20,000 nt of DNA, from the IMG/VR virus record IMGVR_UViG_3300020325_000015; one strand, 5' to 3'. A model generated the notes under the pieces. The model saw nothing but the letters and a program-made list of their open reading frames with translations. It made no database searches and was not told where the DNA came from. Every line of letters starts with the position of its first letter. Position 1 is the first letter of the stretch. Positions 2-19,642 of the stretch are shown here, piece by piece. The translations under genes were made by a program, and so were the position numbers. This DNA is from an uncultured virus (IMG/VR IMGVR_UViG_3300020325_000015). Taxonomy: Duplodnaviria; Heunggongvirae; Uroviricota; Caudoviricetes.

Positions 2-574
2 AAATGGAATATAGTCAACGACATCAAGGATAAACTTGAAAAGCAAAAGACTATTTCTAAATATCTTAAAAAAAGTATTACTGGTATTCTTAAAGATAGA
101 ATAAAGGTTAATGCTGATGGCACTAAAAGACCTATTAAAGGTATATGGAGTAATGAGGAACAAAAGAAAATAACGGGTGGTTTTGGATATATAACAAAAC
201 TATTTCCACATTGGTTTGATACATCTATTATCAATATGGTCGATGAAGAGGTTTATGAATATAGTTATGATAAATTAGGTGAGTATTTAGATAGCTGGTC
301 TAAAAAGTATTTACCTAAACATCATTTAATGTTAAAAATGTTTTTTGGTTTAGATGATGTTTATTCTAAGCCTAAAAAAATGATTGATATTGCTAATTAT
401 TTTGGTATAAAAGTTGAGAATGTTAGAAAACAAAAGCAGCGTATATTAGCTAAGTTAAAATCTAATGAGCTGGCTTTAAAAGAGTTAGCACACTTCGTTG
501 CTATACACGGAATAAAAAGCTCTTCACAAGTTCATTTATATGCTGAAAAACATTTAAAGATTTATCAAAATTAA
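2..574 (+). CDS. Phage-encoded sigma-70-like RNA polymerase sigma factor (5'-truncated by window edge)
   Basis: Frame is open from position 2 (KWNIVNDIK...) through the listed 236..574 ORF. ISKYLKKSITGILKDRIKVNADGTKRP resembles sigma region 2.3-2.4. LKMFFGLDDVYSKPKKMIDIANYFGIKVENVRKQKQRILAKLK matches the region 4 HTH pattern (LRFGLDD..TL.EIG..FGVTRERVRQI..KAL.KLR). Confidence 0.75.
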   Translation, partial: KWNIVNDIKDKLEKQKTISKYLKKSITGILKDRIKVNADGTKRPIKGIWSNEEQKKITGGFGYITKLFPHWFDTSIINMVDEEVYEYSYDKLGEYLDSWSKKYLPKHHLMLKMFFGLDDVYSKPKKMIDIANYFGIKVENVRKQKQRILAKLKSNELALKELAHFVAIHGIKSSSQVHLYAEKHLKIYQN

Positions 575-4577: not shown

Positions 4578-4855
4578 CAGGTTCTAAAAAGAAAGATGCA
4601 TATAAAATGCCACCGCATAATGCATCTAATGAACAAATGAAATGGCAAAAATATTGTATAGATAATAATATAAGAATATCACCTTATGGTATTAATAATG
4701 AACCGGGTAAATGGAAAATAGCAATTGCATTAGGCTCATATAAAAAAGGTGAAAAAATATATTATGCGCCAAATGTATATGATAAATATTCTATTTGGTC
4801 TGAATATTATGAAATGTGTAAATACTATTATGATAAACATACAAGACGAATATAG
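4562..4855 (+). CDS. Hypothetical protein (97 aa)
   Basis: ORF overlaps both neighbours in typical phage packing; aromatic-rich C-terminus; no motif recognised. Confidence 0.7.
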   Translation: MGSGLTGSKKKDAYKMPPHNASNEQMKWQKYCIDNNIRISPYGINNEPGKWKIAIALGSYKKGEKIYYAPNVYDKYSIWSEYYEMCKYYYDKHTRRI

Positions 4856-5645
4856 AAGCTTATTAGCTGGTGTATTATATAACGGTAAAGATAAGGAAGA
4901 TCGAACAGGTACTGGTACTAGATCAGTATTTGGTAGAATGATAAAACACGATATGGCCTTAGGCTTTCCACTATTAACAACTAAAAAAATATATTTTAAA
5001 CATGCAGTTACGGAATTATTATGGATTCTTCAAGGCCGTACTGATATGCATTACTTGCAGTCAAACGGTGTTAATTACTGGAATCCTGATTATGAAAGAT
5101 CAGGTAGATCTGATGGTACGCTTGGTCCTGTTTACGGCAAGCAGCTTAGGGACTTCAATGGCGTTGATCAGCTTAAAAGAATACTCATCCAAATTAAAAA
5201 CAACCCAAGCTCGCGGCGCATTATGGCAAGCTTATGGAATCCCAACGATTTGGCTGATATGGTGTTGCCACCTTGCCACTATGGCTTTCAAGTATATATA
5301 AATGATGGCAAACTTAATCTTATGTGGCAGCAACGATCAGTTGATGTATTTCTTGGTTTACCTTATGATATTGCAATGTACGGTTTATTACTTCAGTTGT
5401 TGGCTGAAGGATCTGAATATGCTAAAGGCCAACTTATCGGTTGCTTTGGTGATTGTCATTTGTATAATAACCATATTGATCAAGCCAAACAACAATTGGA
5501 TAATGATTTTAGGGAATTGGCTAGGGTTGATTCTTCTTGTGGAATTAGTATTATTAATGAAGAAGTAATATTACCTGAAGCAAATATGATTAAATTAATA
5601 AACTATAATCCTCATCCACCAATTAAAGCAAAATTAAATACTTAA
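4830..5645 (+). CDS. thyA: Thymidylate synthase (ThyA) family protein with Asn->Asp at the specificity site; possible dCMP methylase or hydroxymethylase
   Basis: DRTGTGT, FPLLTTKK, ELLW, GPVYG.Q, SRR, catalytic LPPCH, QRSVDVFLGLPYDIAMY and HLY. ATG at 4830 (MINIQDEY) gives a normal ThyA length of 271 aa. Confidence 0.92.
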   Translation: MINIQDEYRSLLAGVLYNGKDKEDRTGTGTRSVFGRMIKHDMALGFPLLTTKKIYFKHAVTELLWILQGRTDMHYLQSNGVNYWNPDYERSGRSDGTLGPVYGKQLRDFNGVDQLKRILIQIKNNPSSRRIMASLWNPNDLADMVLPPCHYGFQVYINDGKLNLMWQQRSVDVFLGLPYDIAMYGLLLQLLAEGSEYAKGQLIGCFGDCHLYNNHIDQAKQQLDNDFRELARVDSSCGISIINEEVILPEANMIKLINYNPHPPIKAKLNT

Positions 5646-5647
5646 AT

Positions 5648-5977
5648 ATGAAAAAACTATTATTACTATTACTATTACCAATATTTGCATATTCGCAAAT
5701 GGAACAAATATTATCAAGGCCTATATTTTTACATGATGGCACTGAAGCTACACTAATAAGTTCTGATTTACCTTATGGTACTATAATACAAACAGGAGTT
5801 ATTATAGATAGAATAAATGCACCTGATGATATAAGTGCTATAAATGATTATAACTTTTATAGAGATGAATCTTATTTTAATTGGAATTCATTATTCAGTA
5901 ATGAAATTGGTAAAGGTGTAATAAAAACTAGAAGTGGACAATATTATTTAATTAACTTATATGGAGACAATTATTAA
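5648..5977 (+). CDS. Secreted/periplasmic hypothetical protein with Sec signal peptide
   Basis: MKKLLLLLLLPIFAYS|Q: basic N-region, Leu-rich H-region, A-x-S cleavage site and Gln at +1. Confidence 0.75.
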   Translation: MKKLLLLLLLPIFAYSQMEQILSRPIFLHDGTEATLISSDLPYGTIIQTGVIIDRINAPDDISAINDYNFYRDESYFNWNSLFSNEIGKGVIKTRSGQYYLINLYGDNY

Positions 5978-6725
5978 AAGCGGTAAATATAAAATATATC
6001 ATATACCAGGAGTTAAGATTGGTTGTACAACTAATGTTAAAAAACGTGTTGAAGAAGAGCAAGGTTATAAACCTGGTGAATACGATATACTGTATGAAAC
6101 AGATGATATAGTAGAAGCTTCTGAAGCTGAAAGAAATTTGCAAAAAGAACTTAAATATAAACCAGATATTAAATTATATAAAGATTTATTCCGTAAAAAA
6201 ATGAATAAGCATAGCTCATCACAAGCAACAACAACATTTAAAATATCACCTAATGATATTAATGCTGAATACTTAAGAGGTATTACACTAGAATTACCTG
6301 AAGGTACATTTGAATTAAATAATGAAGATTATATTGATTGGATATTAACTAATGTACATGCAAGCCAGTTTGGGCCCGGTACGTGTTATATTTACAATAA
6401 AGCTTTTACTAAAGCATTTAAACCTAATGGCACATCAGCATTTAATAAAATAAGAGATTGGGCTAAAGATCGTAACCTTTATCAAAAAGGTGATAGCAAG
6501 ACTCAATATGTTAAATTAATGGAAGAAGCAGGAGAACTTGCACAAGCATTATTAAAACAAGATAAAGCTGAAATAAAAGATGCTATTGGCGATATGGTAA
6601 TAGTACTTGCTAATCTTTCAGAGCTTGAAGGATTTAAGATTGAGGATTGCATTAACGATTCATTCAATGTAATATCAAATAGAACAGGTAAAATGGTTAA
6701 CGGAACATTCGTAAAAGATGAGTAA
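5961..6725 (+). CDS. Fusion of N-terminal GIY-YIG-like nuclease domain and C-terminal MazG-like NTP pyrophosphohydrolase
   Basis: N-terminus: KIYHIPGVKIGCTTNVKKR...EAE, matching GIY/YIG/R/E spacing. C-terminus: IRDWAKDRNL...KLMEEAGELAQALLK..KAEIKDAIGDMVIVL, matching the MazG EExxE...DxxxD pattern. Confidence 0.82.
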   Translation: METIIKSGKYKIYHIPGVKIGCTTNVKKRVEEEQGYKPGEYDILYETDDIVEASEAERNLQKELKYKPDIKLYKDLFRKKMNKHSSSQATTTFKISPNDINAEYLRGITLELPEGTFELNNEDYIDWILTNVHASQFGPGTCYIYNKAFTKAFKPNGTSAFNKIRDWAKDRNLYQKGDSKTQYVKLMEEAGELAQALLKQDKAEIKDAIGDMVIVLANLSELEGFKIEDCINDSFNVISNRTGKMVNGTFVKDE

Positions 6726-6969
6726 AATAAACGATAAAATAATTAATCGCGTAATTGATAAGATTCAAAAGCGTGCTGAAGCAGGTTATAAAAAGTATGG
6801 TGTTGGTTTAGATAAAGACGAACAATCACTTGATACTTGGCTTAATCATTTACAAGAAGAACTTATGGATGCTGCTAACTATATTGAAAAAATTAGAGCT
6901 GTATTAATTGAAGAAGATAAAAAGATAAGTAAATATCCTGAGTCTAGCTGGACACAGAGCACTACATGA
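6718..6969 (+). CDS. Small all-alpha NTP pyrophosphohydrolase (MazG-like) protein
   Basis: R...G.KKYG..LD......WL.HLQEELMDAANY motif, a helical EExxD pattern of phage MazG-like proteins. Confidence 0.6.
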   Translation: MSKINDKIINRVIDKIQKRAEAGYKKYGVGLDKDEQSLDTWLNHLQEELMDAANYIEKIRAVLIEEDKKISKYPESSWTQSTT

Positions 6970-7418
6970 GAAGAAGTAAAAAGAGAGGCCCTGTACAAGC
7001 TAAAAAAATATCTTATGATGGGATTAAGTTTGCATCGGGCCTTGAAAGATATACTTACATAGCTTTAAAAAAAAATAAATTGTTTGAAGGATATGAAAGC
7101 GAAACATTTGAATTAATAAATTCATTTCAATTTCCTAATACAAGTTATGAAAAGCAAGCTAATGGTAAAGGAGAATATATAAATAGAGGTACTAAAAAAA
7201 TATTAGGTATAAAATATACACCTGATTTTATTGGTAAAGATTATATAATAGAATGTAAAGGAAGACCAAACGAATCTTTTCCTTTGCGCTGGAAATTATT
7301 TAAATTATGGCTCACGAAAAACAATATTGGAAAGATACTTTACAAGCCGCAAAATCAGAAGGAAGTGGATTTGACGATAACATTGATCAAAGAATCGAGA
7401 AAAAGAAAGCGCGGTTAA
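6966..7418 (+). CDS. T7 endonuclease I-like Holliday junction resolvase (PD-(D/E)XK)
   Basis: FASGLE, KYTPDF and IIECKG match T7 gp3-like endonucleases. Confidence 0.8.
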   Translation: MRRSKKRGPVQAKKISYDGIKFASGLERYTYIALKKNKLFEGYESETFELINSFQFPNTSYEKQANGKGEYINRGTKKILGIKYTPDFIGKDYIIECKGRPNESFPLRWKLFKLWLTKNNIGKILYKPQNQKEVDLTITLIKESRKRKRG

Positions 7419-8078: not shown

Positions 8079-8271
8079 GCTAATAGAAATGCGCAATAGA
8101 ATTGAAACCATAGGAGCTGCAATGAATAGAGTTGTACAAGAACTTACTCATTTAAAAGATTTAAGTATTGGTACAATGGAATTAGTTAAGAAGCTACCTG
8201 GTTATGATAAAGCATTAGATGAATTAAAAGAACAATATAAGAAAAAGAAAACAGATGAGTCTATTCAATGA
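8065..8271 (+). CDS. Hypothetical coiled-coil protein (68 aa)
   Basis: Heptad-like helical sequence; overlaps the nrdB start. Confidence 0.7.
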   Translation: MKEAKLIEMRNRIETIGAAMNRVVQELTHLKDLSIGTMELVKKLPGYDKALDELKEQYKKKKTDESIQ

Positions 8272-9223
8272 AAGAATACCTTATAAACCTTTTGAATATC
8301 CGGAATATTATACAGAAGGTTGGCTTAAACAAGCACAAGCTTTTTGGCTTCACACAGAGATACCAATGTCAGGTGACGTCAAAGATTGGAATGAAAAACT
8401 TACCAAGGCAGAGAAGAACTTGGTTGGAAATATACTTTTGGGATTTGCACAAACGGAGTGTGCGGTTTCTGATTATTGGACCCAAAAAGTTGTATCGTGG
8501 TTTCCTAAACATGAAATCCAACAAATGGCCATGATGTTTGGCTCACAAGAAACAATTCACGCAGTAGCATATTCTTATTTAAATGAAACACTCGGACTCG
8601 AAAATTTCGAAGCATTCTTACACGAACCCGCCACGGCCCAGCGCTTCGATAATCTTGTTAGTTACTCTGGTAACGACCCTATTGGGATTGGCAGGTCTCT
8701 CGCTGTATTTTCTGCATTTGCAGAAGGCGTTAGTCTCTATTCCGCTTTTGCTGTGCTATATAGTTTTCAGTTGCGTAATTTGCTCAAAGGCATTGGCCAA
8801 CAGATGAAATGGAGTGTAAGGGATGAGTCATTACATTCTAAAATGGGATGTCAACTATTTAGGCATATGTGCCAAGAAATTAAAGGATTACAAAATGATT
8901 GCTATACACACGTTATTAAAGCAGCAAAAACAATGCTTAAAGCAGAGGAAAGATACATTGATAAAATGTTTGAACAAGGAGACATTGAAAACCTCAGTGC
9001 ATACGACCTTAAACAATTTATCAGAAAACGTCTCAACGAAAAAATTGTTGAACTCGGTTACTCAAACAGTGGGGCCTACTTTGAATACGACAAAGTTGCA
9101 GCGAGCAATCTTGACTGGTTCTACCATCTTACCGGGGGGCACACTCATACTGATTTCTTTGCTGTTCGTCCGACTGATTACTCAAAAGCTAACGAAGGAG
9201 AAGATTTTGAAGATATTTGGTAG
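8255..9223 (+). CDS. nrdB: Class I ribonucleotide reductase beta subunit
   Basis: KPFEYP and FW...E motifs; ligands E68 (FAQTE), E99/H102 (ETIH), EG (AEGVSLYSAF) and RDESLH; Tyr106; C-terminal HTDFFAVRPTDY. Confidence 0.95.
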   Translation: MSLFNERIPYKPFEYPEYYTEGWLKQAQAFWLHTEIPMSGDVKDWNEKLTKAEKNLVGNILLGFAQTECAVSDYWTQKVVSWFPKHEIQQMAMMFGSQETIHAVAYSYLNETLGLENFEAFLHEPATAQRFDNLVSYSGNDPIGIGRSLAVFSAFAEGVSLYSAFAVLYSFQLRNLLKGIGQQMKWSVRDESLHSKMGCQLFRHMCQEIKGLQNDCYTHVIKAAKTMLKAEERYIDKMFEQGDIENLSAYDLKQFIRKRLNEKIVELGYSNSGAYFEYDKVAASNLDWFYHLTGGHTHTDFFAVRPTDYSKANEGEDFEDIW

Positions 9224-9580
9224 ATGAGAGTTTGTAATGTTTGTAAGAAAAAGAAAAAAGATCATAAATTTAAACACGCAGGTAAGAAAACTTGTATACG
9301 ATGTGAGTTTAGGTGGAAACGATCTTTTATGCGTTTATTAGTTCAAGATAGAAGGCTTACAGCAAAAGAAAGAATTGCAAATAGATTAGGTTATATGGGT
9401 ACGGCATTTATTATGATGTCACCATATTTACTAGCATACGAAGGTATAGGTGTTATAACTTATATTATAGGTGGAATATTATCTATACCTCAAGTATGGG
9501 TTGCGAAACAATGGAACTTAGTATTAGTTAATTTAAATGTATCAATAGGATATTTAATATATTATTTAAATGTGGAATAA
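9224..9580 (+). CDS. Zn-ribbon (CxxC...CxxC) plus ~3-TM membrane protein
   Basis: CNVC...CIRC in a Lys-rich N-terminus, followed by three hydrophobic segments (LGYMGTAFIMMSPYLL; IGVITYIIGGILSIPQVWV; WNLVLVNLNVSIGYLIYYL). Confidence 0.75.
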   Translation: MRVCNVCKKKKKDHKFKHAGKKTCIRCEFRWKRSFMRLLVQDRRLTAKERIANRLGYMGTAFIMMSPYLLAYEGIGVITYIIGGILSIPQVWVAKQWNLVLVNLNVSIGYLIYYLNVE

Positions 9581-11315
9581 CAATTGGGTTAAAGGTAAAG
9601 ATTATCCTTCATGGGGTGATAATGATGTTTACAAAAAAACTATATCAGGTGGTTACCTTATAAATGGCGAATCACCTCGTGATGCTTACACACGTGTTGC
9701 TAAAACTGTAGCAAAACGTTTATATAAACCAGAACTTGCAGATAAATTTTTTGATTATATATGGAAAGGATGGTTATGTTTAGCTTCTCCTGTACTTTCT
9801 AATACAGGTGCAGACAGAGGTTTACCTATAAGTTGTTTTGGAATAGATGTTGCAGATAGTATACAGGATATAGGTAATAAAAATTTAGAAATGATGTTAC
9901 TTGCAAAACACGGTGGGGGTGTAGGTATCGGAGTTAATATGATTCGTCCTGCCGGTGCTAAAATTACAGGTAATGGAACTTCAGACGGCGTTGTCCCTTT
10001 TTGCAAAATATATGATTCCACTATACTCGCGACCAATCAAGGTTCCGTTAGAAGAGGAGCTGCAAGTGTTAATATCAATATTGAACACGACGATTTTGAA
10101 GAGTGGCTTGAAATTAGAGAACCTAAAGGAGATGTCAATAGACAATCACTTAACTTGCACCAGTGTGCTGTCGTTGGCGATAAGTTTATGCGAAAGCTTG
10201 AACTCGGAGATCCCGAAGCAAGAAAAAGATGGTCAAAGCTTATACAAAAACGTAAAGCAACTGGAGAACCTTATATCTTATTTAAAGGAAATACAAACAA
10301 AGCTAATCCAGAAGCATATAAGAAAAACAGTTTAAAAGTTCATATGACTAATATATGCAGTGAAATAGTATTGCATACAGATGAATCACATAGTTTTGTA
10401 TGTTGCTTATCTTCTGTTAACTTAGATAAATATGATGAATGGAAAAATACAAACCTTATATATGATTCTACATGGTTTTTAGATGGAGTTCTTGAGGAGT
10501 TTATTCAGAAAGCTAAAAACATGAAGGGATTTGAAAATGCAGTAAGATCTGCTGAGAAAGGAAGAGCTTTAGGTTTAGGTGTACTTGGATGGCATAGCTT
10601 ATTGCAAAAAAGAGGTATTGCTTATGAAAGTTTATTAGCACAGTTTAAAACACGTGAAATATTTTCAAAAATAAAAATTGAAACTGAACGTGCATCAAGA
10701 GCACTTGCTGAAATATATGGTGAGCCGCTTTGGTGTGTTGGCACAGGATTTAGAAATACACATCTTCGCGCTATAGCACCAACTGTAAGTAATTCTAAAT
10801 TAGCAGGTAATGTGTCACCGGGTATTGAACCTTGGGCTGCAAATGTATTTACAGAACAATCTGCTAAAGGCACATTTATTAGAAAAAATAACGAACTTAA
10901 AAAAGTATTAAGAAAAATTGGGATTGATAACAAAGATACATGGGATAAGATACTTGCCGATGGTGGATCTGTTCAAGCAATCGATGCACTTAACGGATGG
11001 TTTTTTGACGAAAGATCAAGGCTTACTGAATTACCAGGAGGAGAGCCGGTTAAAAACGTGTTCAAAACATTTAAAGAAATAAATCAACTAGAGTTAGTTA
11101 GACAAGCAGGTATAAGACAAGATTATATTGATCAATCAGTATCACTTAATCTTGCCTTTCCTTCTGAAGCTACCCCTCGTTGGATAAATCAAGTACATAT
11201 GGAGGCGTGGAAGCACGGTATAAAAACCTTGTATTATATGCGTACTGAGTCTGTACTGAGAGGTGACATAGCCGCAGCAGCTATGGATCCTAATTGTTTA
11301 AGCTGCGATGGTTAA
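9570..11315 (+). CDS. nrdA: Class I ribonucleotide reductase alpha subunit (compact, no ATP cone)
   Basis: SPVLSN, PISCF, GGGVG, QGSVRRGA, TNICSE (thiyl-radical Cys), CCLSS, APTVSNS, KTLYY and C-terminal CLSCDG; 581 aa. Confidence 0.96.
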   Translation: MWNNNWVKGKDYPSWGDNDVYKKTISGGYLINGESPRDAYTRVAKTVAKRLYKPELADKFFDYIWKGWLCLASPVLSNTGADRGLPISCFGIDVADSIQDIGNKNLEMMLLAKHGGGVGIGVNMIRPAGAKITGNGTSDGVVPFCKIYDSTILATNQGSVRRGAASVNINIEHDDFEEWLEIREPKGDVNRQSLNLHQCAVVGDKFMRKLELGDPEARKRWSKLIQKRKATGEPYILFKGNTNKANPEAYKKNSLKVHMTNICSEIVLHTDESHSFVCCLSSVNLDKYDEWKNTNLIYDSTWFLDGVLEEFIQKAKNMKGFENAVRSAEKGRALGLGVLGWHSLLQKRGIAYESLLAQFKTREIFSKIKIETERASRALAEIYGEPLWCVGTGFRNTHLRAIAPTVSNSKLAGNVSPGIEPWAANVFTEQSAKGTFIRKNNELKKVLRKIGIDNKDTWDKILADGGSVQAIDALNGWFFDERSRLTELPGGEPVKNVFKTFKEINQLELVRQAGIRQDYIDQSVSLNLAFPSEATPRWINQVHMEAWKHGIKTLYYMRTESVLRGDIAAAAMDPNCLSCDG

Positions 11316-12607: not shown

Positions 12608-15600
12608 TTAACTTACTTTTTGTTCTGCTTTATTAGCTTTTGCTTCCCATGGAAGCTTTGGATGGCCATCTTCATACTTTTTCCCATTATATATCACATG
12701 ACCGTTTGTTCTTTTATATTTATTGTTTTTCCAATAAACATAGTCAGCATCATAATTTAACTGACCTGATTTCATATCTTTAATATGTTGCTTCTCATGA
12801 GCTATTACCTTTTTTCTTTTTTCTTTTGGTAAGCCAGGTTTTATATCAATAGTACCATCATTATTGGCTCTACCTAATACACCTTCGGGTAAATTTTTTT
12901 GTAAATTAGATCTACCTATTCTTCCTCTTTTTGTTCTTGTAGATATTTTTTTACCTGTTTGTCTAATATTTCTATTTGATTTTGTTTTATATTTAGGTGT
13001 TCTTAACTTAGAAGATTTTAAAAGATATTTTTGTAAAGCTTTTCTTTCTCTTTCTTGTTCTATTTCTTTATCTTTTAATCCTAAATCCCATTTATTATAT
13101 CCTAACATTAAGGATATTCTTTGCCATACTTCAGTATCACTATCAACAGATGCTTTTAAGTTTTCCATTTTTCTTAATGCTCTATCTAAAGGTATATTAG
13201 CAACAGCAGATAATGTTTGTGCAGCTGCCATATATGCAGGATTATCTATTGATAATGGACCTTCTTCACGCATTTTTTCAAGACTTTGTTTATACGTAAA
13301 TGCTCTACCAGCAGATTGTAATTTTCTAAGTTTTGAATTAATAGGTGGTGACAATGTTGTTATCTCATTTGCAACTTTTTCATAGTTAGGTCTGCCACTT
13401 TGATATTCATCAATAGCTTTTACAACCATATTTTTAGCAGTAGCTACAGCGGCACCAGCAACACCAGCACCTCTAAGCAATGTATCTGCAATACCATTAG
13501 CAACTCGGCCATATTTTTCTTTTTCTTTTTCATCATCTTCTTCATCATCGAAGAGCATTGAAAACATAGCTCCTTGTAATGCTGTAAATATTATATTTTG
13601 TACAGCTCCATAATATGCAAGTTTTGACAAATTAGTTTTCCAATCACCTCTGTTATTTATTAAGTCTAAGGCTGCTTTTTTAGTCAATCTAGCATATTGC
13701 ATAGGGGTGTTGGCAAAAGCCAATATAACGCGCCCTAAAGGGCTCGCTTGCTGCATTGAAACTCTATCTGGCCGTGAAGATTGTTGAGACTCTTCTGTTA
13801 TTTCTTTAAAATCAAGAAAAGCTTTTTCTTTTGCTTCAGTTTCAGATAATCCGTCTTGCTTATATTTATTAATTCTATTTCTATAAAAAGCTGCACCACC
13901 TATTGAAATAGCAAAACTATCTGCCATTTGTGTTGGTAAAAATCCTTTTTTAAGAATATAAGAAAGAGCGGCACGTACTTTATTTTGTGATGTTTCAGCT
14001 GTTCTTGCAATTTCATCTGCATTTACATCTGTTTTTAATCCGGATCTTCTTGATTTTAAAAAGTCTGAATTAAAAATTTCTGCAAAATCTGACCAATATT
14101 GTTTTTGATTAGCAAAAGCTTGTGCTGCTTTTATAGGATTATTATCCGACCAATTTAAATAATTTACAGATGAAATAGTTTGCAATAATGCAGATCTTGT
14201 ATTAAAGAACATTATAGTACCAACAGAATCATTAACCCAGTTCATAAATTGATTAGTTAATTTATTTGCACCTGTCGGTCTATTTCTTCCTGTTTTCATT
14301 CTATGTAGCATATCTTGCAAAGCTTCAACATAATTATCCCCGTATAAAGCTCGAAGTTTATTCATATTTTCTTTGCTATACACAATATCTACATTTTCTT
14401 GCCATTTTTCTAAAAACTTTTTTCTAGAAACTGTATTTGTATAATTAACTAAATCAGTTGTTATAGTTCCAGCAAGCCAATCACCTGTTGGTTCTGGATA
14501 ACCATCAATAGTTAAACCTTGTATTTGATTTGCAAAAGCAAGTAATTCAGGGTTTGATTCAACATGTTTTTTAAGAGCTTTAATGTCTTTTTTAGAAACA
14601 CCTTCTGGTAATACTTTTTGTTTATCCCAAAGATATAATCTTATAGCATCTTCATTAGTAAAATCTCTTACAGCTTCTTTATTTAATTTAGCAGGAGTAT
14701 TTTTAATTTTAGATTTTAAATCTTCCCATGCTTTTAACGCTACAATTTTAGCACTTTCATAGTTTTTAATACCTTCTGCATATGGATTTATAATGTTTTC
14801 TTTATACCATTCTAAATTTTTATCACCTGTTTTACCTTTACCAAGTGTTGGATATATAAGGCCCATATAATCTTCAGCTGAATATGGTACAAAGAATTTA
14901 AAAGGATTATTCTTTTTACCTAGCTTAGCAGCTCTAGCGTCAGAATATCTAGCTTTAGAATCAACACCTTTAACTTCTTGAAGTATATCGTTAAAATCAT
15001 CACTTAAACTTTGAGAGGCTTTTACTGACGATTCTGAAAGCTGGCCTGATTCATTTACACTATAAGTTTCAGCAATAGTTTTACCATTTAATAATTTAAT
15101 TTTTGTAGGATCTATACCATCGTCAAATAAAGCAACAGTGGGATTAAGGTATCTTTCAAGCCAACTGTTTTGAAATACTTTCCAGCCCTCGGGCATAGTT
15201 CTTTGATAACCAGCATTTGTAAGTTTTACGTCATCTGCTTTATCTAAAGCTAATAATTTAAAATTATTTACAACAGCTGCATAATCTAAATTAAAATTTC
15301 TACTAGTATCTAAAATACTATCTAATAAATACATATAAGCACCCGTTTGAGGCATAGCATGCTCCCATTCAATTAATTTAAATTTACCTTTATCAGTTGT
15401 AAATCCAACTGGCTTAGTGCTATATCCTACAAATTGTGCACCTAATCTATTAGGGTGATTATCATTACTAGCAGATAATTTCATATATTGCGCAACTGTT
15501 ATTGCGGCATTTGTTTTTTTATCTCCTTCAAGACTATTAATATATTTATCTAGTCTATTCCACATTTCTTTATGAATAGTACCCCATTTTCTATTAAACG

Positions 15601-18600
15601 CTTGTATTTTACCTGATTTTATATTTTTTTCAATTGCAGGTACATTTTCACCTATTTCAGTATTATACTTTGCTGTATATTTAGTTATAGGTTTACCATC
15701 AAGCATAATTGGTTTACCAAAGTTTTTAAACTTTCTTAGCTTTTGTATTTCTTGAATATAATATTTATTAATTTCTTTTCTTTCTTTCTCAGGAAGTCCT
15801 CTTTTAAAATTTAACTCTCTAGCACTAGCCCCAGATTTAGTAAATATAGTCATAGTATCAGCGCCACTATGAAAGAAAAAATTATAATCAAATAAAGGTA
15901 ATAAATTAGTTTTATAATTTGTTATTAACTTATCTATATCTTTTTTACTTTCTATGGGAGGAATATTTTTGTTTACATGTTTTTCTAATACCTTATTTAC
16001 ATCTCCCTTATATAACCTAAATTGTCTATCTAAATTAGTTGCAGGTTTTTCAAACTCAGCGGCATACATACTTTTACTAGCTAATACTATACCTGTTTTT
16101 TTCTTAAATTCACCTGCTGTAACAGGATCTTGTTTAGCAAATTCTATTCTTTCGGTATCAGCTATATCTCGTGCTACTGCATTAATTAAAGATTTTTTTC
16201 TATCACTTTTAACACTAGCAGGTTTACCCGGCGCAATATCTTTTCCTTCATAATAATCTATAAACTCTTGTCTAGTTGGAGGATTTTCTATACTCCAATT
16301 AGCTGCAGGACCTCCACCCATTTGGAAATCTATATAATTTAAAGCACTCGATGAAAGAACGTCGTAGTTTTTATTTAAAAAATTAGTAAAATCTTTAGAT
16401 GTTTTAGTATTTTTACCAAACGTATCTCTAATAGTATTAAAAAGTTGCTTACCAAAAAGATCATTAAATGCTTTAGTTCTTTTCTTAATAAGCTGTTTAT
16501 CAGTTCCTTTTTTGCCTTCTAAATCTTTCTGTGCTTTAATAGTGCCTAATTGAGCTAATTTTCTTTTAAACTCTTTAGTTAAATTTGGTATTATATCTCC
16601 TACAGATTTACCAATATCTATTTTAGCATCTGTTGTTTCTTTTTCTTTTACTTGCTTAGCTTCAGGTTTATCAATTTTATCTTCAACTTTTCTTTTTTCT
16701 CCTTCTTTAAATAAATCTTTTCTAGCATCTAATTTACCAAATCTTGTATTAGCAAATATAAACTCTCCAAAACCTTCAGTACCAACTTTTGTACCATCCG
16801 CTCTTGTTTGTTCAGGATCAAATTTAACTAACCTTTCTGTAACATTGTCAATTATTCTATCTGCTTCTTCTTGGCTTTCAGCTCTACTTCTGATATAGTT
16901 ATTTATAACATTATCTCTTTGAGTTAAAGATTCATATATACGATTAAATATTCTAGGGTTTTGAAAATCTTGTTTAGTTTTAACTGTTTTTGGAACTAAA
17001 TTATTTATATCTTCTAAAACACTTTTAGATGCTTTTATAGTAGACTGTGTATCGCCTCTTAGCAGGCGTTGTAATTCTTCTCTTCTAGCTCTACTTTTAG
17101 GAGTAATATTAAATTCAGACTCAAATTCCTCTATTAAACGTAATTCATCATATAAAGGTTTTTGTTTTTCATCTTTTAATTGTTTTTGTAGCTCTTCTCT
17201 TCGAGCTTTGCTTTTAGGAGTAATTTTAAAATTAGCTTCTAATTCATCTATTGCTTGAAGTTCATCAAAAATACTTTTAGATTCTGTTGTTTTTGTTTTT
17301 TTAGTTTTTTTCTTTTTAGGTTTTTGTACAATTAAATCTCCTTCAAAACCCTCTATAGCACCTCTTATTATAGATTGTCTAATACCACCTTTAGCAATAT
17401 CAGCATTATAATCTTTTATAAAATTAAATACATCTTTACCGGTATTAAATTTTTTTCTAACTCCAAATGATTCTAATATTTGTCTTATAGTATTACCTAT
17501 TTTTTGAAATACATTTTCATTATATTTAATATCTCCAGTAGCAACAGCATCAGCAAATAAAGCTATAACTTCTTCAGCTTGTGTTTCTTGAGGCTTTTCT
17601 TTATATAATTCTAATCTTTTTCTAAACGTAGAATTTTCAACTTGGTTTATATCAATTTTTCCTATTTCTTCACCTAAAGCTAAAGCTAAATTTATAGCAG
17701 TATCAGGATTATCATTTAAAGTTTTGTACAAAATTCCATGTAAAAATTCATGTGCAGCTACATTAACTGCACCTGTTTTTCTAGCAATTTCTTTGTTTAG
17801 TATTATTTCTTGTGTTCCATCTGAATTTTGCAAAATAACACCATCATTGGTATTAGCTAAAACTTTGTATTGCTTTTCGCCTTTTTCTTTTAAATATTTT
17901 CCAACTTCTTTAGAAGATTCAAATGTTTGAAGTGTAATATCTTTGCCAGCTCGCTCTCTTAATTGTTTTCTTAATTGTCTTTTTCTTGATTTAGTTTCTT
18001 CTGTAATTCCAGAAGTATTTTCTTCATCTCTAACTTGATTTAATTCATTTCGAAGTCTTTCTGTTTCTTCTTTACGAGCTTGTTTTAATTTATCAATATT
18101 AGTTCTAACTGTTTCTGTTTGGGTATCAATTTTTTCATCTGCTCTTGTTATAGCACTTTGCTTTATATCAGAAAGTTTAGTTTGTTGTTCTTCAAAATCT
18201 AATTTTAAACCATCTACTATAGTATTTCTTTCTTCTTTAGTAATTGTACCATTATTATATTTAGAATCAGCCTCCTTAATACCTTTTTCTATTTTTTCTA
18301 TTTTATCAGAAATTTTAGAAGCCTCATATATTTCAGTTTCAGACATGTTAGAAAGAATTTTATTATTCTCTAATACAGCATCTGAAACCCGTTGTTTAAT
18401 TTTATTTTTTTGCCTAGTAATGCTTGATTTAACCTGCCTATCTTTTGTACGCTTATATTTGTTTTCTAATTTTTCAATTTCACTAAGCCCATCATCAATT
18501 ATTTTTTGATTTTCTAAAGATTTTATAGCGCCGCTTGCTTTTAATTTATCTTGTTTATCATAAAAAGTTTGGCCCTTTCCTCTTAATACGCCACCACCTA

Positions 18601-19642
18601 CAAATCCTTGTAAATAAGATTCTAAACCTTGTTGAGAAAACATAGTATTCGTCATCTCTCCTAAAGCTTCTTCATTTGTTTTACCTTCGGCTCTAGCTAC
18701 ATTATAACCTTCTAAACCTGTTTGTACAAATTCAGTTAATCCTTCTTTATTACCAGAAAGCAATGTTTTGGTTATACCTTTACCTAATCCTTGTTTTACT
18801 AAAGCATTAGATAAAGACTTACCTGCTCCTTTTAATCCAAAACGTTCTAAAGCACCACTTAATACACCTACGCCAATAGGAGTATCAATTTCATCTTCAC
18901 CATCCTCAATAAGCTCTTCTAAACTTTTTCCTTTTTCTTTAGCAAGTGTTTCGTTATAATCCATATAACCTCTTCCAATAAACTCTGGTATTAAACCTCC
19001 TCCTAATGTTAGCATATTTACAGCAGCACTACTACCAATTGAAGTAATACCATTAACAACACCGGCAGCAATTTCTCCTATATCACCTTCTTTAAAGCCT
19101 TTTACTATTTCTCCTGTTGCACCCCTTGCTTGCATTTCTTCATTTAATTCCTGTATTCTTTTTCTATCTGCAGCAAGAGTTTTATCTGTAATTCTAAAAA
19201 TTTCAGGTATATCTGGATTATTATTAAATTCATCCATTGCTTCTCTACCAAATATAGCTGCCATTAATGAATCTGTACCTAATGTAATATAAGGAGCTGC
19301 TTGCTTAAGCATTGTAGGAACATTTCTTAATGAATTCATCATTTTTTCACCCGCAGATAATTCTTCTGTAGCAGCTTTATTTGCTAGTAAATTTAAAGAT
19401 TCATCTGTAGTTCTAGGTCTTTGTAATTCCAAAGAACCAACTGCCTGCTGTGATACCCCAACGTTTGGTTGAGTCATTCTTCTGCTCCCCACTGCAGGCG
19501 CAGTTGTCTCCACAGTGGGCTCTGTCTTTTCCACGCTTTCTTCTTCTAATAATTGAGCGGTTGGAAAATCTTTTAAAAATTGTTCTTCTCTATCAGGTGA
19601 AACATTGTATTCCACACCATTAACAACATATACTTTAATCAT
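12608..19642 (-). CDS. Giant multidomain protein (2344 aa), probable virion-ejected/polyvalent protein with two HExxH metallopeptidase-like motifs
   Basis: Uninterrupted 7-kb ORF. Gly/Ala-rich amphipathic N-region, coiled coils, HEFLH (aa 631-635), HEKQH (aa 2282-2286) and a helical C-terminal region. Confidence 0.85.
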   Translation of the reverse strand: MIKVYVVNGVEYNVSPDREEQFLKDFPTAQLLEEESVEKTEPTVETTAPAVGSRRMTQPNVGVSQQAVGSLELQRPRTTDESLNLLANKAATEELSAGEKMMNSLRNVPTMLKQAAPYITLGTDSLMAAIFGREAMDEFNNNPDIPEIFRITDKTLAADRKRIQELNEEMQARGATGEIVKGFKEGDIGEIAAGVVNGITSIGSSAAVNMLTLGGGLIPEFIGRGYMDYNETLAKEKGKSLEELIEDGEDEIDTPIGVGVLSGALERFGLKGAGKSLSNALVKQGLGKGITKTLLSGNKEGLTEFVQTGLEGYNVARAEGKTNEEALGEMTNTMFSQQGLESYLQGFVGGGVLRGKGQTFYDKQDKLKASGAIKSLENQKIIDDGLSEIEKLENKYKRTKDRQVKSSITRQKNKIKQRVSDAVLENNKILSNMSETEIYEASKISDKIEKIEKGIKEADSKYNNGTITKEERNTIVDGLKLDFEEQQTKLSDIKQSAITRADEKIDTQTETVRTNIDKLKQARKEETERLRNELNQVRDEENTSGITEETKSRKRQLRKQLRERAGKDITLQTFESSKEVGKYLKEKGEKQYKVLANTNDGVILQNSDGTQEIILNKEIARKTGAVNVAAHEFLHGILYKTLNDNPDTAINLALALGEEIGKIDINQVENSTFRKRLELYKEKPQETQAEEVIALFADAVATGDIKYNENVFQKIGNTIRQILESFGVRKKFNTGKDVFNFIKDYNADIAKGGIRQSIIRGAIEGFEGDLIVQKPKKKKTKKTKTTESKSIFDELQAIDELEANFKITPKSKARREELQKQLKDEKQKPLYDELRLIEEFESEFNITPKSRARREELQRLLRGDTQSTIKASKSVLEDINNLVPKTVKTKQDFQNPRIFNRIYESLTQRDNVINNYIRSRAESQEEADRIIDNVTERLVKFDPEQTRADGTKVGTEGFGEFIFANTRFGKLDARKDLFKEGEKRKVEDKIDKPEAKQVKEKETTDAKIDIGKSVGDIIPNLTKEFKRKLAQLGTIKAQKDLEGKKGTDKQLIKKRTKAFNDLFGKQLFNTIRDTFGKNTKTSKDFTNFLNKNYDVLSSSALNYIDFQMGGGPAANWSIENPPTRQEFIDYYEGKDIAPGKPASVKSDRKKSLINAVARDIADTERIEFAKQDPVTAGEFKKKTGIVLASKSMYAAEFEKPATNLDRQFRLYKGDVNKVLEKHVNKNIPPIESKKDIDKLITNYKTNLLPLFDYNFFFHSGADTMTIFTKSGASARELNFKRGLPEKERKEINKYYIQEIQKLRKFKNFGKPIMLDGKPITKYTAKYNTEIGENVPAIEKNIKSGKIQAFNRKWGTIHKEMWNRLDKYINSLEGDKKTNAAITVAQYMKLSASNDNHPNRLGAQFVGYSTKPVGFTTDKGKFKLIEWEHAMPQTGAYMYLLDSILDTSRNFNLDYAAVVNNFKLLALDKADDVKLTNAGYQRTMPEGWKVFQNSWLERYLNPTVALFDDGIDPTKIKLLNGKTIAETYSVNESGQLSESSVKASQSLSDDFNDILQEVKGVDSKARYSDARAAKLGKKNNPFKFFVPYSAEDYMGLIYPTLGKGKTGDKNLEWYKENIINPYAEGIKNYESAKIVALKAWEDLKSKIKNTPAKLNKEAVRDFTNEDAIRLYLWDKQKVLPEGVSKKDIKALKKHVESNPELLAFANQIQGLTIDGYPEPTGDWLAGTITTDLVNYTNTVSRKKFLEKWQENVDIVYSKENMNKLRALYGDNYVEALQDMLHRMKTGRNRPTGANKLTNQFMNWVNDSVGTIMFFNTRSALLQTISSVNYLNWSDNNPIKAAQAFANQKQYWSDFAEIFNSDFLKSRRSGLKTDVNADEIARTAETSQNKVRAALSYILKKGFLPTQMADSFAISIGGAAFYRNRINKYKQDGLSETEAKEKAFLDFKEITEESQQSSRPDRVSMQQASPLGRVILAFANTPMQYARLTKKAALDLINNRGDWKTNLSKLAYYGAVQNIIFTALQGAMFSMLFDDEEDDEKEKEKYGRVANGIADTLLRGAGVAGAAVATAKNMVVKAIDEYQSGRPNYEKVANEITTLSPPINSKLRKLQSAGRAFTYKQSLEKMREEGPLSIDNPAYMAAAQTLSAVANIPLDRALRKMENLKASVDSDTEVWQRISLMLGYNKWDLGLKDKEIEQERERKALQKYLLKSSKLRTPKYKTKSNRNIRQTGKKISTRTKRGRIGRSNLQKNLPEGVLGRANNDGTIDIKPGLPKEKRKKVIAHEKQHIKDMKSGQLNYDADYVYWKNNKYKRTNGHVIYNGKKYEDGHPKLPWEAKANKAEQKVS
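17060..17275 (-). repeat. Intragenic tandem duplication, 117-bp (39-aa) period
   Basis: IFDELQAIDELEANFKITPKSKARREELQKQL versus LYDELRLIEEFESEFNITPKSRARREELQRLL; the DEL Asp codons at 17264 and 17147 are 117 bp apart. Confidence 0.85.

Follow-up and report, generated by a model that had tools for sequence, protein, structure and literature searches.

Exchange of the pyrimidine-specificity asparagine of ThyA-family thymidylate synthases (TS) for aspartate is cited as shifting preference to deoxycytidine monophosphate (dCMP) (PMC8670742, 10.1101/2024.12.05.627091, PMC13326640). The engineered variants E. coli ThyA N177D and L. casei TS N229D (Hardy & Nalivaika 1992; Liu & Santi 1992) are described as dCMP methylases, and for these two enzymes as well as T4 gp42 the role of the residue is given as established (citations in PMC8670742 and PMC13326640). 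In nature, the DNA of phage Xp12 is reported to contain 5-methylcytosine (5mC) throughout, and its enzyme yields 5-methyldeoxycytidine (5mdC) in vivo, as did five of seven Asp177 enzymes expressed in E. coli (10.1101/2024.12.05.627091). The subject here is a ThyA-family gene encoding 271 amino acids (aa) at 4830..5645 on the plus strand of the window, that is, the whole 20,000-nucleotide stretch analyzed, which comes from an uncultured Caudoviricetes virus (IMG/VR record IMGVR_UViG_3300020325_000015). The observed pattern of residues, the extent to which it is conserved, and the linked genes point, with moderate confidence, to a dCMP C5-methyltransferase (5-methyl-dCMP synthase) that would feed 5mC into phage DNA, with an adjoining MazG fusion protein acting as a deoxycytidine triphosphate (dCTP) pyrophosphatase (dCTPase).

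The reading frame opens with ATG at 4830, a start that agrees in alignment with the N-termini of homologues (MIN.Q.EY), and ends at 5645; two out-of-frame open reading frames (ORFs) lie inside it on the same strand (5002-5301, +, 99 aa; 5302-5568, +, 88 aa). PF00303 covers the translated protein over its full length (E 7e-85, profile positions 2-264 of 266), HMMER matches it to 124 distinct TS sequences of the PDB, with 6auj at the top (E 1.5e-71), and the motifs DRTGTGT, ELLW, YWNPDY, SRR, PPCH, QRSVDVFLGLPYDIAMY, and CHLY are present. The GAT codon at 5367..5369 (+) encodes Asp180, which translation, HMMER, and MAFFT place in the column of E. coli Asn177, just as the original prediction, made from the letters of this stretch, had read it; in the HMMER alignments, “glpydiamy” of the protein stands opposite “gvpfniasy” of three solved thymidylate synthases. 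The MAFFT alignment, with E. coli ThyA (NC_000913), the Xp12 enzyme (MT664984), and T4 gp42 (NC_000866) as references, also places aspartate in this column in both phage enzymes, as had been claimed for gp42. The protein shares 43% identity with E. coli ThyA, from which it differs by N177 to D, F176 to Y, and S180 to M as well as by an unconserved W83. Retained are R21, E58, W80, Y94, R126, R127, L143, C146, H147, R166, S167, D169 (RSVD), H207, and Y209, and the C-terminal tail, PIKAKLNT, is ThyA-like, whereas T4 gp42 has no such tail. The earlier view that the enzyme is otherwise ThyA-like holds for every catalytic residue checked. By these alignments, the fold is intact and the specificity residue alone is switched, which supports an assignment to dCMP methylation.

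That the aspartate might be a sequencing error or a singleton, a possibility raised with the original prediction, does not hold. It occupies the 177 column in all 121 sequences of the query and its 120 best clusters (63-93% identity; the best of 8000 scored). Relatives of the TS locus occur in 80 viral contigs, which with the window give 81 loci, and each of the 81 has an aspartate codon at this place (78 GAT, 3 GAC). Contigs from four runs of four studies span 5367-5369, and among the 40 listed of 144 differences none falls there. Close copies on contigs of metagenome-assembled genomes (MAGs) carry Asp in 10 of 10 cases; the other 70 cellular matches comprise 68 with Asn and two stray matches of the regular expression. 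The accompanying L..C-H pattern (143/146/147 columns) is found in 77 of the 81 loci.

Searched against a library of 1.84 billion proteins, the enzyme has 16,122 matches at E <= 0.001. Among the best 150 of these, residue 177 reads as Asn in 130, Asp in 16, Ser in one, and Gln in one, with two unmatched; the residues were extracted by regular expression, and two matches are visibly spurious. The tree holds 114 rows, namely the query, 20 relatives (every sixth of the 120 close clusters), 90 representatives, E. coli ThyA, the Xp12 enzyme, and T4 gp42, the representatives being those of the 150 with a length of at most 345 aa, so that longer, mostly fused proteins are omitted. Asn stands in the 177 column of 76 of the 90 aligned representatives. 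The query clade, with Asp in 23 of 23 rows, has an SH-aLRT support of 100 and is nested in a supported set (96) of 48 rows, 24 of them with Asn. The Asp177 state appears to have arisen repeatedly within the family, because at least 14 Asn/Asp changes are needed by parsimony and at least three are forced by well-supported branches. The Xp12 enzyme is placed away from the query clade on a very long branch (3.12). The query clade probably represents an origin separate from those of the Xp12 and T4 gp42 enzymes, with long branches leaving the exact placement unsure.

Standard annotation would call this enzyme thyA, as the original prediction expected. TIGR03284, the NCBI thymidylate synthase equivalog, scores it at 264.2 bits against a cut-off of 108.35, and JGI and PHROGs label it thymidylate synthase; the Xp12 enzyme (99.6) and T4 gp42 (30.6) fall below the cut-off. 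The model gives no weight to residue 177, and the outcome is an annotation trap, in which the threshold of a curated equivalog is passed while the specificity residue disagrees. Tblastn against 50,697 phage records matched 4159 of them, all below 60% identity (best 45%), and megablast with the whole window gave no match, though close records may be missing from what was searched. What is new here is the clade as a lineage, which stands unusually near to true ThyA.

This closeness bears on a different account, in which the protein is a working thymidylate synthase for deoxyuridine monophosphate (dUMP) that tolerates the aspartate and boosts thymidine monophosphate (dTMP) for an AT-rich genome. 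Five relatives of about 60-66 kb (G001-G005; 94-100% complete, G001 98%, one with terminal repeats) each encode exactly one TS-family gene, and ThyX is found in none of them; this combination is counted in support of dCMP methylation, and the lack of another TS or ThyX also suits the dUMP account. So do the 31% G+C of the genome, the 43% identity to E. coli ThyA, the retained H147, L143, and C-terminal tail, the passing of TIGR03284, unlike the Xp12 enzyme and T4 gp42, and the finding of no modified-base-specific kinase, deaminase, or polymerase. Yet Asn is the rule in the nearest representatives (76 of 90), the Asn-to-Asp exchange is cited as the switch to dCMP, and all 81 loci keep Asp even though a single transition would give Asn. 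A role confined to ordinary dTMP synthesis is rather unlikely.

Residues around the base pocket bear on the product. Across 433 thymidylate synthases from viromes, residues 177 and 147 were the best at telling contigs with modified cytosine from unmodified ones, Asp177 going with modification (PMC8670742). According to PMC13326640, an acidic residue in place of L143 is associated with hydroxymethyl products, and D169N marks 5-hydroxy-dCMP synthases. With a non-acidic L143 and a D169 that is not Asn, the protein carries neither the hydroxymethyl nor the hydroxy marks. It departs from hydroxymethylases of the T4 gp42 type, with their acidic 143 column and missing C-terminal tail, and from 5-hydroxy-dCMP synthases of the RB69 gp48 type, which have Asn in the D169 column. 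Because L143, D169, and the ThyA-like tail are kept, methyl is the best call for the product, and hydroxymethyl or hydroxy groups would not be expected. The original prediction had allowed for 5-methyl-dCMP or 5-hydroxymethyl-dCMP; the signature residues favor the former and speak against the latter.

A C5 product other than methyl, either 5-hydroxymethyl-dCMP as made by T4 gp42 or 5-hydroxy-dCMP as made by RB69 gp48, could still be argued from the Asp that the protein shares with gp42 at the 177 column. The L143 rule is, moreover, a correlation (PMC13326640), and it is loose because the Xp12 methylase breaks it with Asn at 143. The non-acidic L143, the D169 that is not Asn, and the C-terminal tail argue the other way, and Pfam and PHROG scans of G001 contain no glycosyltransferase, carbamoyltransferase, or deoxynucleoside monophosphate (dNMP) kinase. 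Such a product is very improbable.

Other positions were compared between the Asn-type and Asp-type rows of the alignment. Ser at 180 is found in 71 of 77 Asn-type rows and 7 of 17 Asp-type rows and is Met in the query; its loss hints at an altered constraint near the base pocket. An independent-pairs test of the correlation with residue 177 had only three supported pairs and hence no power, so raw counts are reported. The second Trp of the canonical segment (W83), which the original prediction had noticed to be missing, is indeed absent, but its absence is unrelated to the switch: among the 77 Asn-type rows, 38 lack it too.

The second component of the proposed system is encoded at 5961..6725 (+), where a T5orf172 (GIY-YIG-like) domain and a conserved middle domain are fused to a C-terminal MazG/PRA-PH-type nucleoside triphosphate (NTP) pyrophosphohydrolase. 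Pfam detects MazG (6e-07), T5orf172 (1.2e-06), and PRA-PH (2.6e-05), the best PHROG match is MazG-like (8.8e-32), and the C-terminal 100 residues bear an EExGE...D..GD motif. The AlphaFold2 (AF2) model has a predicted local distance difference test (pLDDT) score of 84.7. Residues 155-254 give VIA Z values of 9.2-9.8 against MazG/PRA-PH chains, cyanophage S-2L MazZ included, and a mammalian dCTPase is among the Foldseek matches of the model; these fold searches reached residues 145-254 only. Residues 1-155, comprising T5orf172 and the middle domain with its invariant TTF, W..N..S, and YNK, are joined to MazG in 27 of 27 aligned homologues. From the C-terminal domain we infer a putative dCTP pyrophosphatase. 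ORF clustering finds the fusion in 81 of 81 loci, within a fixed gene order of primase-helicase, small ORF, TS, optional insert, fusion, 83-aa protein, and DUF1064 protein. Because the 81 loci are kin, the linkage of TS and fusion partly reflects shared ancestry. PRA-PH genes are also reported to co-occur with thymidylate synthase in modified contigs (PMC8670742).

In the route proposed for this locus, the MazG-type pyrophosphatase would convert dCTP to dCMP, feeding the methylase and at the same time draining dCTP. Asp180 would hydrogen-bond N3 and N4 of cytosine where Asn177 reads uracil, the cysteine equivalent to C146 would attack C6 of the pyrimidine, and methylene-tetrahydrofolate would donate its carbon to C5. 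Hydride transfer from the folate would then yield 5-methyl-dCMP and dihydrofolate. Host kinases would carry 5-methyl-dCMP to the triphosphate, and the host replisome would insert 5mC in place of cytosine, conferring resistance to many restriction enzymes. Host kinases and a host replisome are needed in this scheme because no phage kinase or polymerase was found.

Several points weigh against dCMP methylation followed by incorporation. Two of seven predicted Asp177 enzymes gave no 5mdC in the assays of 10.1101/2024.12.05.627091. H147 is kept, although position 147 is the second discriminating site of the MetaGPA study (PMC8670742); His is found there in 77 of 77 Asn-type rows and 11 of 17 Asp-type rows. 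The Xp12 methylase, with Asn at 143, shows that the residue used to call the product is not shared by a known methylase. Residual or even main activity on dUMP may persist, given the identity to ThyA and the TIGR03284 score. No dCMP deaminase is found in G001-G005 (0 of 5) or in the window, and the five genomes also contain no thymidylate kinase, family A or B DNA polymerase, or C5 DNA methylase. A Walker-A scan returned no kinase-sized candidate besides the primase-helicase and an 85-aa frame at 26817-27074 (-). No kinase or polymerase appears in the scans of G001, the genome that stood in for that of the window's own phage. Pfam was applied there to 68 ORFs with a minimum length of 60 aa, and PHROGs to 38 of these (85 ORFs were called; 14 below 60 aa and 3 across junctions of stored stretches were omitted). 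The kinase step for 5-methyl-dCMP is a gap because no phage kinase was found, while the preprint assays had T4 dNMP kinase co-expressed; in those assays the polymerase of E. coli itself incorporated 5mdC (10.1101/2024.12.05.627091).

Restriction-site counts in G001 add to the doubts. CATG is rare, with 94 sites observed against 173 expected (0.54, z -7.1), and GATATC and GGTACC are avoided, with observed/expected ratios of 0.18 and 0.36. TGTACA is depleted, GGCC is enriched (57 observed, 40 expected), and CCGG, GCGC, and CGCG show neither trend. According to the Xp12 digestion table, 5mC DNA is cut by KpnI but not by NlaIII (CATG), BsrGI, or BamHI. Avoidance of CATG is unexpected under full 5mC protection because NlaIII fails on Xp12 5mC DNA. 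The avoidance in G001 is consistent with partial protection, or with selection imposed by enzymes that 5mC does not affect; taken as a stand-in for modification, the site pattern is mixed and does not decide. The genome-wide replacement of cytosine put forward by the original prediction is not borne out by any result here.

The persistent avoidance of palindromes containing cytosine also agrees with another fate for the product, namely that dCMP is methylated but 5-methyl-dCMP is mainly deaminated to dTMP by a host dCMP deaminase, leaving ordinary cytosine in virion DNA. The AT-rich genome and the lack of any phage kinase found for 5-methyl-dCMP fit this course, and 10.1101/2024.12.05.627091 proposes that phages with 5mC derive thymidine triphosphate (dTTP) from deamination of 5-methyl-dCTP. 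With no deaminase in the five genomes, however, a host enzyme of unspecified specificity would be required, and the detour has no evident advantage over an ordinary thymidylate synthase. It is distinctly unlikely.

A marine Flavobacteriia host is likely because the primase-helicase has its closest counterparts in Cellulophaga, Tenacibaculum, and Flavobacterium phages (31-41% identity) and because 6 of 10 clade members binned with prokaryotes on MAG contigs are labeled Flavobacteriaceae, Flavobacteriales, or Bacteroidetes. DNA of the window occurs in marine metagenomes of 11 studies, and coastal sea water is reported as one sample of the cytosine-modified virome work. One Flavobacteriaceae MAG bears three different Asp-type TS modules on three contigs, of which one (L093) measures 117 kb; a prophage, a concatemer, or phage DNA binned in error could account for this.

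The window is phage DNA of 31% G+C whose plus strand carries a block for replication and nucleotide metabolism. The block comprises a sigma-like protein, an ERF recombinase, a PDDEXK protein, a primase-helicase, the ThyA-like gene, the T5orf172-MazG fusion, an 83-aa protein, a DUF1064 protein, and both subunits of a class I ribonucleotide reductase. Primase-helicase, ERF, ligase, and ribonucleotide reductase are likewise encoded in G001-G005, and the G001 scans add structural genes, terminase, portal, GroEL/GroES, and ligase, the GroEL and GroES homologues lying at L002:4072-5652 and L002:5649-5903. The 83-aa protein (6718..6969, +) follows the fusion in 78 of 81 loci and has an invariant W..H.QEEL.DA..Y motif. 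Its QEEL.DA element made it a candidate for a second MazG-like enzyme, which was rejected on an hhalign probability of 0.1 against the fusion and the lack of a Pfam match; its AF2 model is a two-helix hairpin (pLDDT 71.8) with no Foldseek match at E <= 0.001. The conserved run ends with the DUF1064 protein (6966..7418, +; PF06356 1.9e-08; phrog_190, Holliday junction resolvase), found in 80 of 81 loci. The small (8255..9223, +; PF00268 3.6e-56) and large (9570..11315, +; PF02867 8.5e-91) subunits of ribonucleotide reductase would supply deoxynucleoside diphosphates.

Between TS and fusion lies an ORF of 109 aa (5648-5977, +) with a signal-peptide-like start, MKKLLLLLLLPIFAYSQ, and no Pfam or PHROG match. 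This gap looks like a variable insertion slot because G001, a near relative, lacks the ORF, a contig of run X6 passes over 5641-5982, and a CAP-domain protein (PF00188) occupies the same slot in 13 other loci. Upstream in the block, a sigma-70-like protein (Sigma70_r2/r4, phrog_351) is encoded at 2-574 (+) of the window and at L080:3984-4727. On the minus strand, 12608-19642 encodes a giant protein of 2344 aa, whose G001 version has 2526 aa. Pfam does not match it, PHROGs match it only weakly and at the C-terminus, and it contains two HExxH motifs (AHEFLHG; AHEKQH); in G001 its neighbor contains a crAss-virus muzzle-protein domain (PF25729).

The concept as such is in the literature already: Asp177 phage enzymes of other lineages have been linked to cytosine modification and assayed in vivo (eLife 2021, PMC8670742; 2024 preprint, 10.1101/2024.12.05.627091), so the idea of the original prediction is not new, and the gain is one of breadth, not principle. 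A literature search found no paper on this marine phage group, and the preprint dataset may already include the clade. If dCMP methylation and incorporation are right, an abundant marine phage group carries fully or largely 5mC DNA, with consequences for restriction, methyl-dependent defense, and methylation calling in ocean viromes. In its most far-reaching form, the proposal is that a large marine phage family with genomes of about 60 kb replaces cytosine with 5mC by two genes of its own, an Asp177 near-canonical ThyA and the T5orf172-MazG fusion, and leaves the rest to host kinases and the host replisome; so strong a statement is unlikely to hold. If it did, a single transition could turn any ThyA into a DNA-modification gene, and “thymidylate synthase” calls in viromes would conceal many such cases. 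The T5orf172 part of the fusion might also cleave host DNA that is unmodified, in the manner of T4 endonuclease II, and so couple the breakdown of that DNA to the removal of dCTP.

Among known systems, Xp12 offers the fullest parallel. Its enzyme (MT664984, coding sequence 45326-46195; relatives in Pamexvirus/Bosavirus) has the ThyA fold and, as here, Asp in the N177 column, and is likewise named “thymidylate synthase” in GenBank. The gene beside the Xp12 methylase, annotated as an HAD hydrolase, is a PRA-PH protein (6.6e-15), just as MazG/PRA-PH adjoins TS in the window, and Xp12 also encodes ribonucleotide reductase and ligase, like this phage group. The differences are substantial. The Xp12 enzyme is 28% identical to E. 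coli ThyA, compared with 43% for the protein here, and has N143 and P147 where the latter has L143 and H147. A deaminase of the dCMP family and a dihydrofolate reductase follow the Xp12 PRA-PH gene, and this phage group has neither; the Xp12 relative AXL1 has the same block plus a DNA polymerase I, and no such polymerase was found in this group. The pyrophosphatase of the window is fused to T5orf172, unlike that of Xp12, and BLASTP between the fusion and the Xp12 PRA-PH protein reaches an E value of only 0.31; the two share a superfamily and not a close family. The pairing of an Asp-type TS with an all-alpha NTP pyrophosphatase is nonetheless shared with the fully 5mC phage Xp12, the pyrophosphatase activity here being putative.

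T4 gp42, a dCMP hydroxymethylase, also has Asp at the specificity column and, by annotation, acts with the dCTPase gp56, whose putative counterpart here is the MazG fusion. It is only 21% identical to E. coli ThyA, has Asp at the 143 column and Thr at 147, and lacks the C-terminal tail; T4 additionally encodes a glucosyltransferase and its own polymerase. The Asp177 homologues of the MetaGPA study and the preprint (PMC8670742, 10.1101/2024.12.05.627091) match the present locus in their Asp177, their PRA-PH linkage, and their predicted 5-methyl-dCMP product. The preprint places Asp177 genes near PRA-PH genes and dCMP-family deaminases, with a deaminase beside most of them (104 of 149), in contrast to the clade here, which has none. 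The nearest situation is that of the engineered N177D and N229D enzymes, in which one Asn-to-Asp exchange was made in an otherwise canonical ThyA scaffold. The protein of the window differs from them in being natural, in having its aspartate fixed, and in showing additional substitutions, F176Y and S180M, within the helix that bears this residue.

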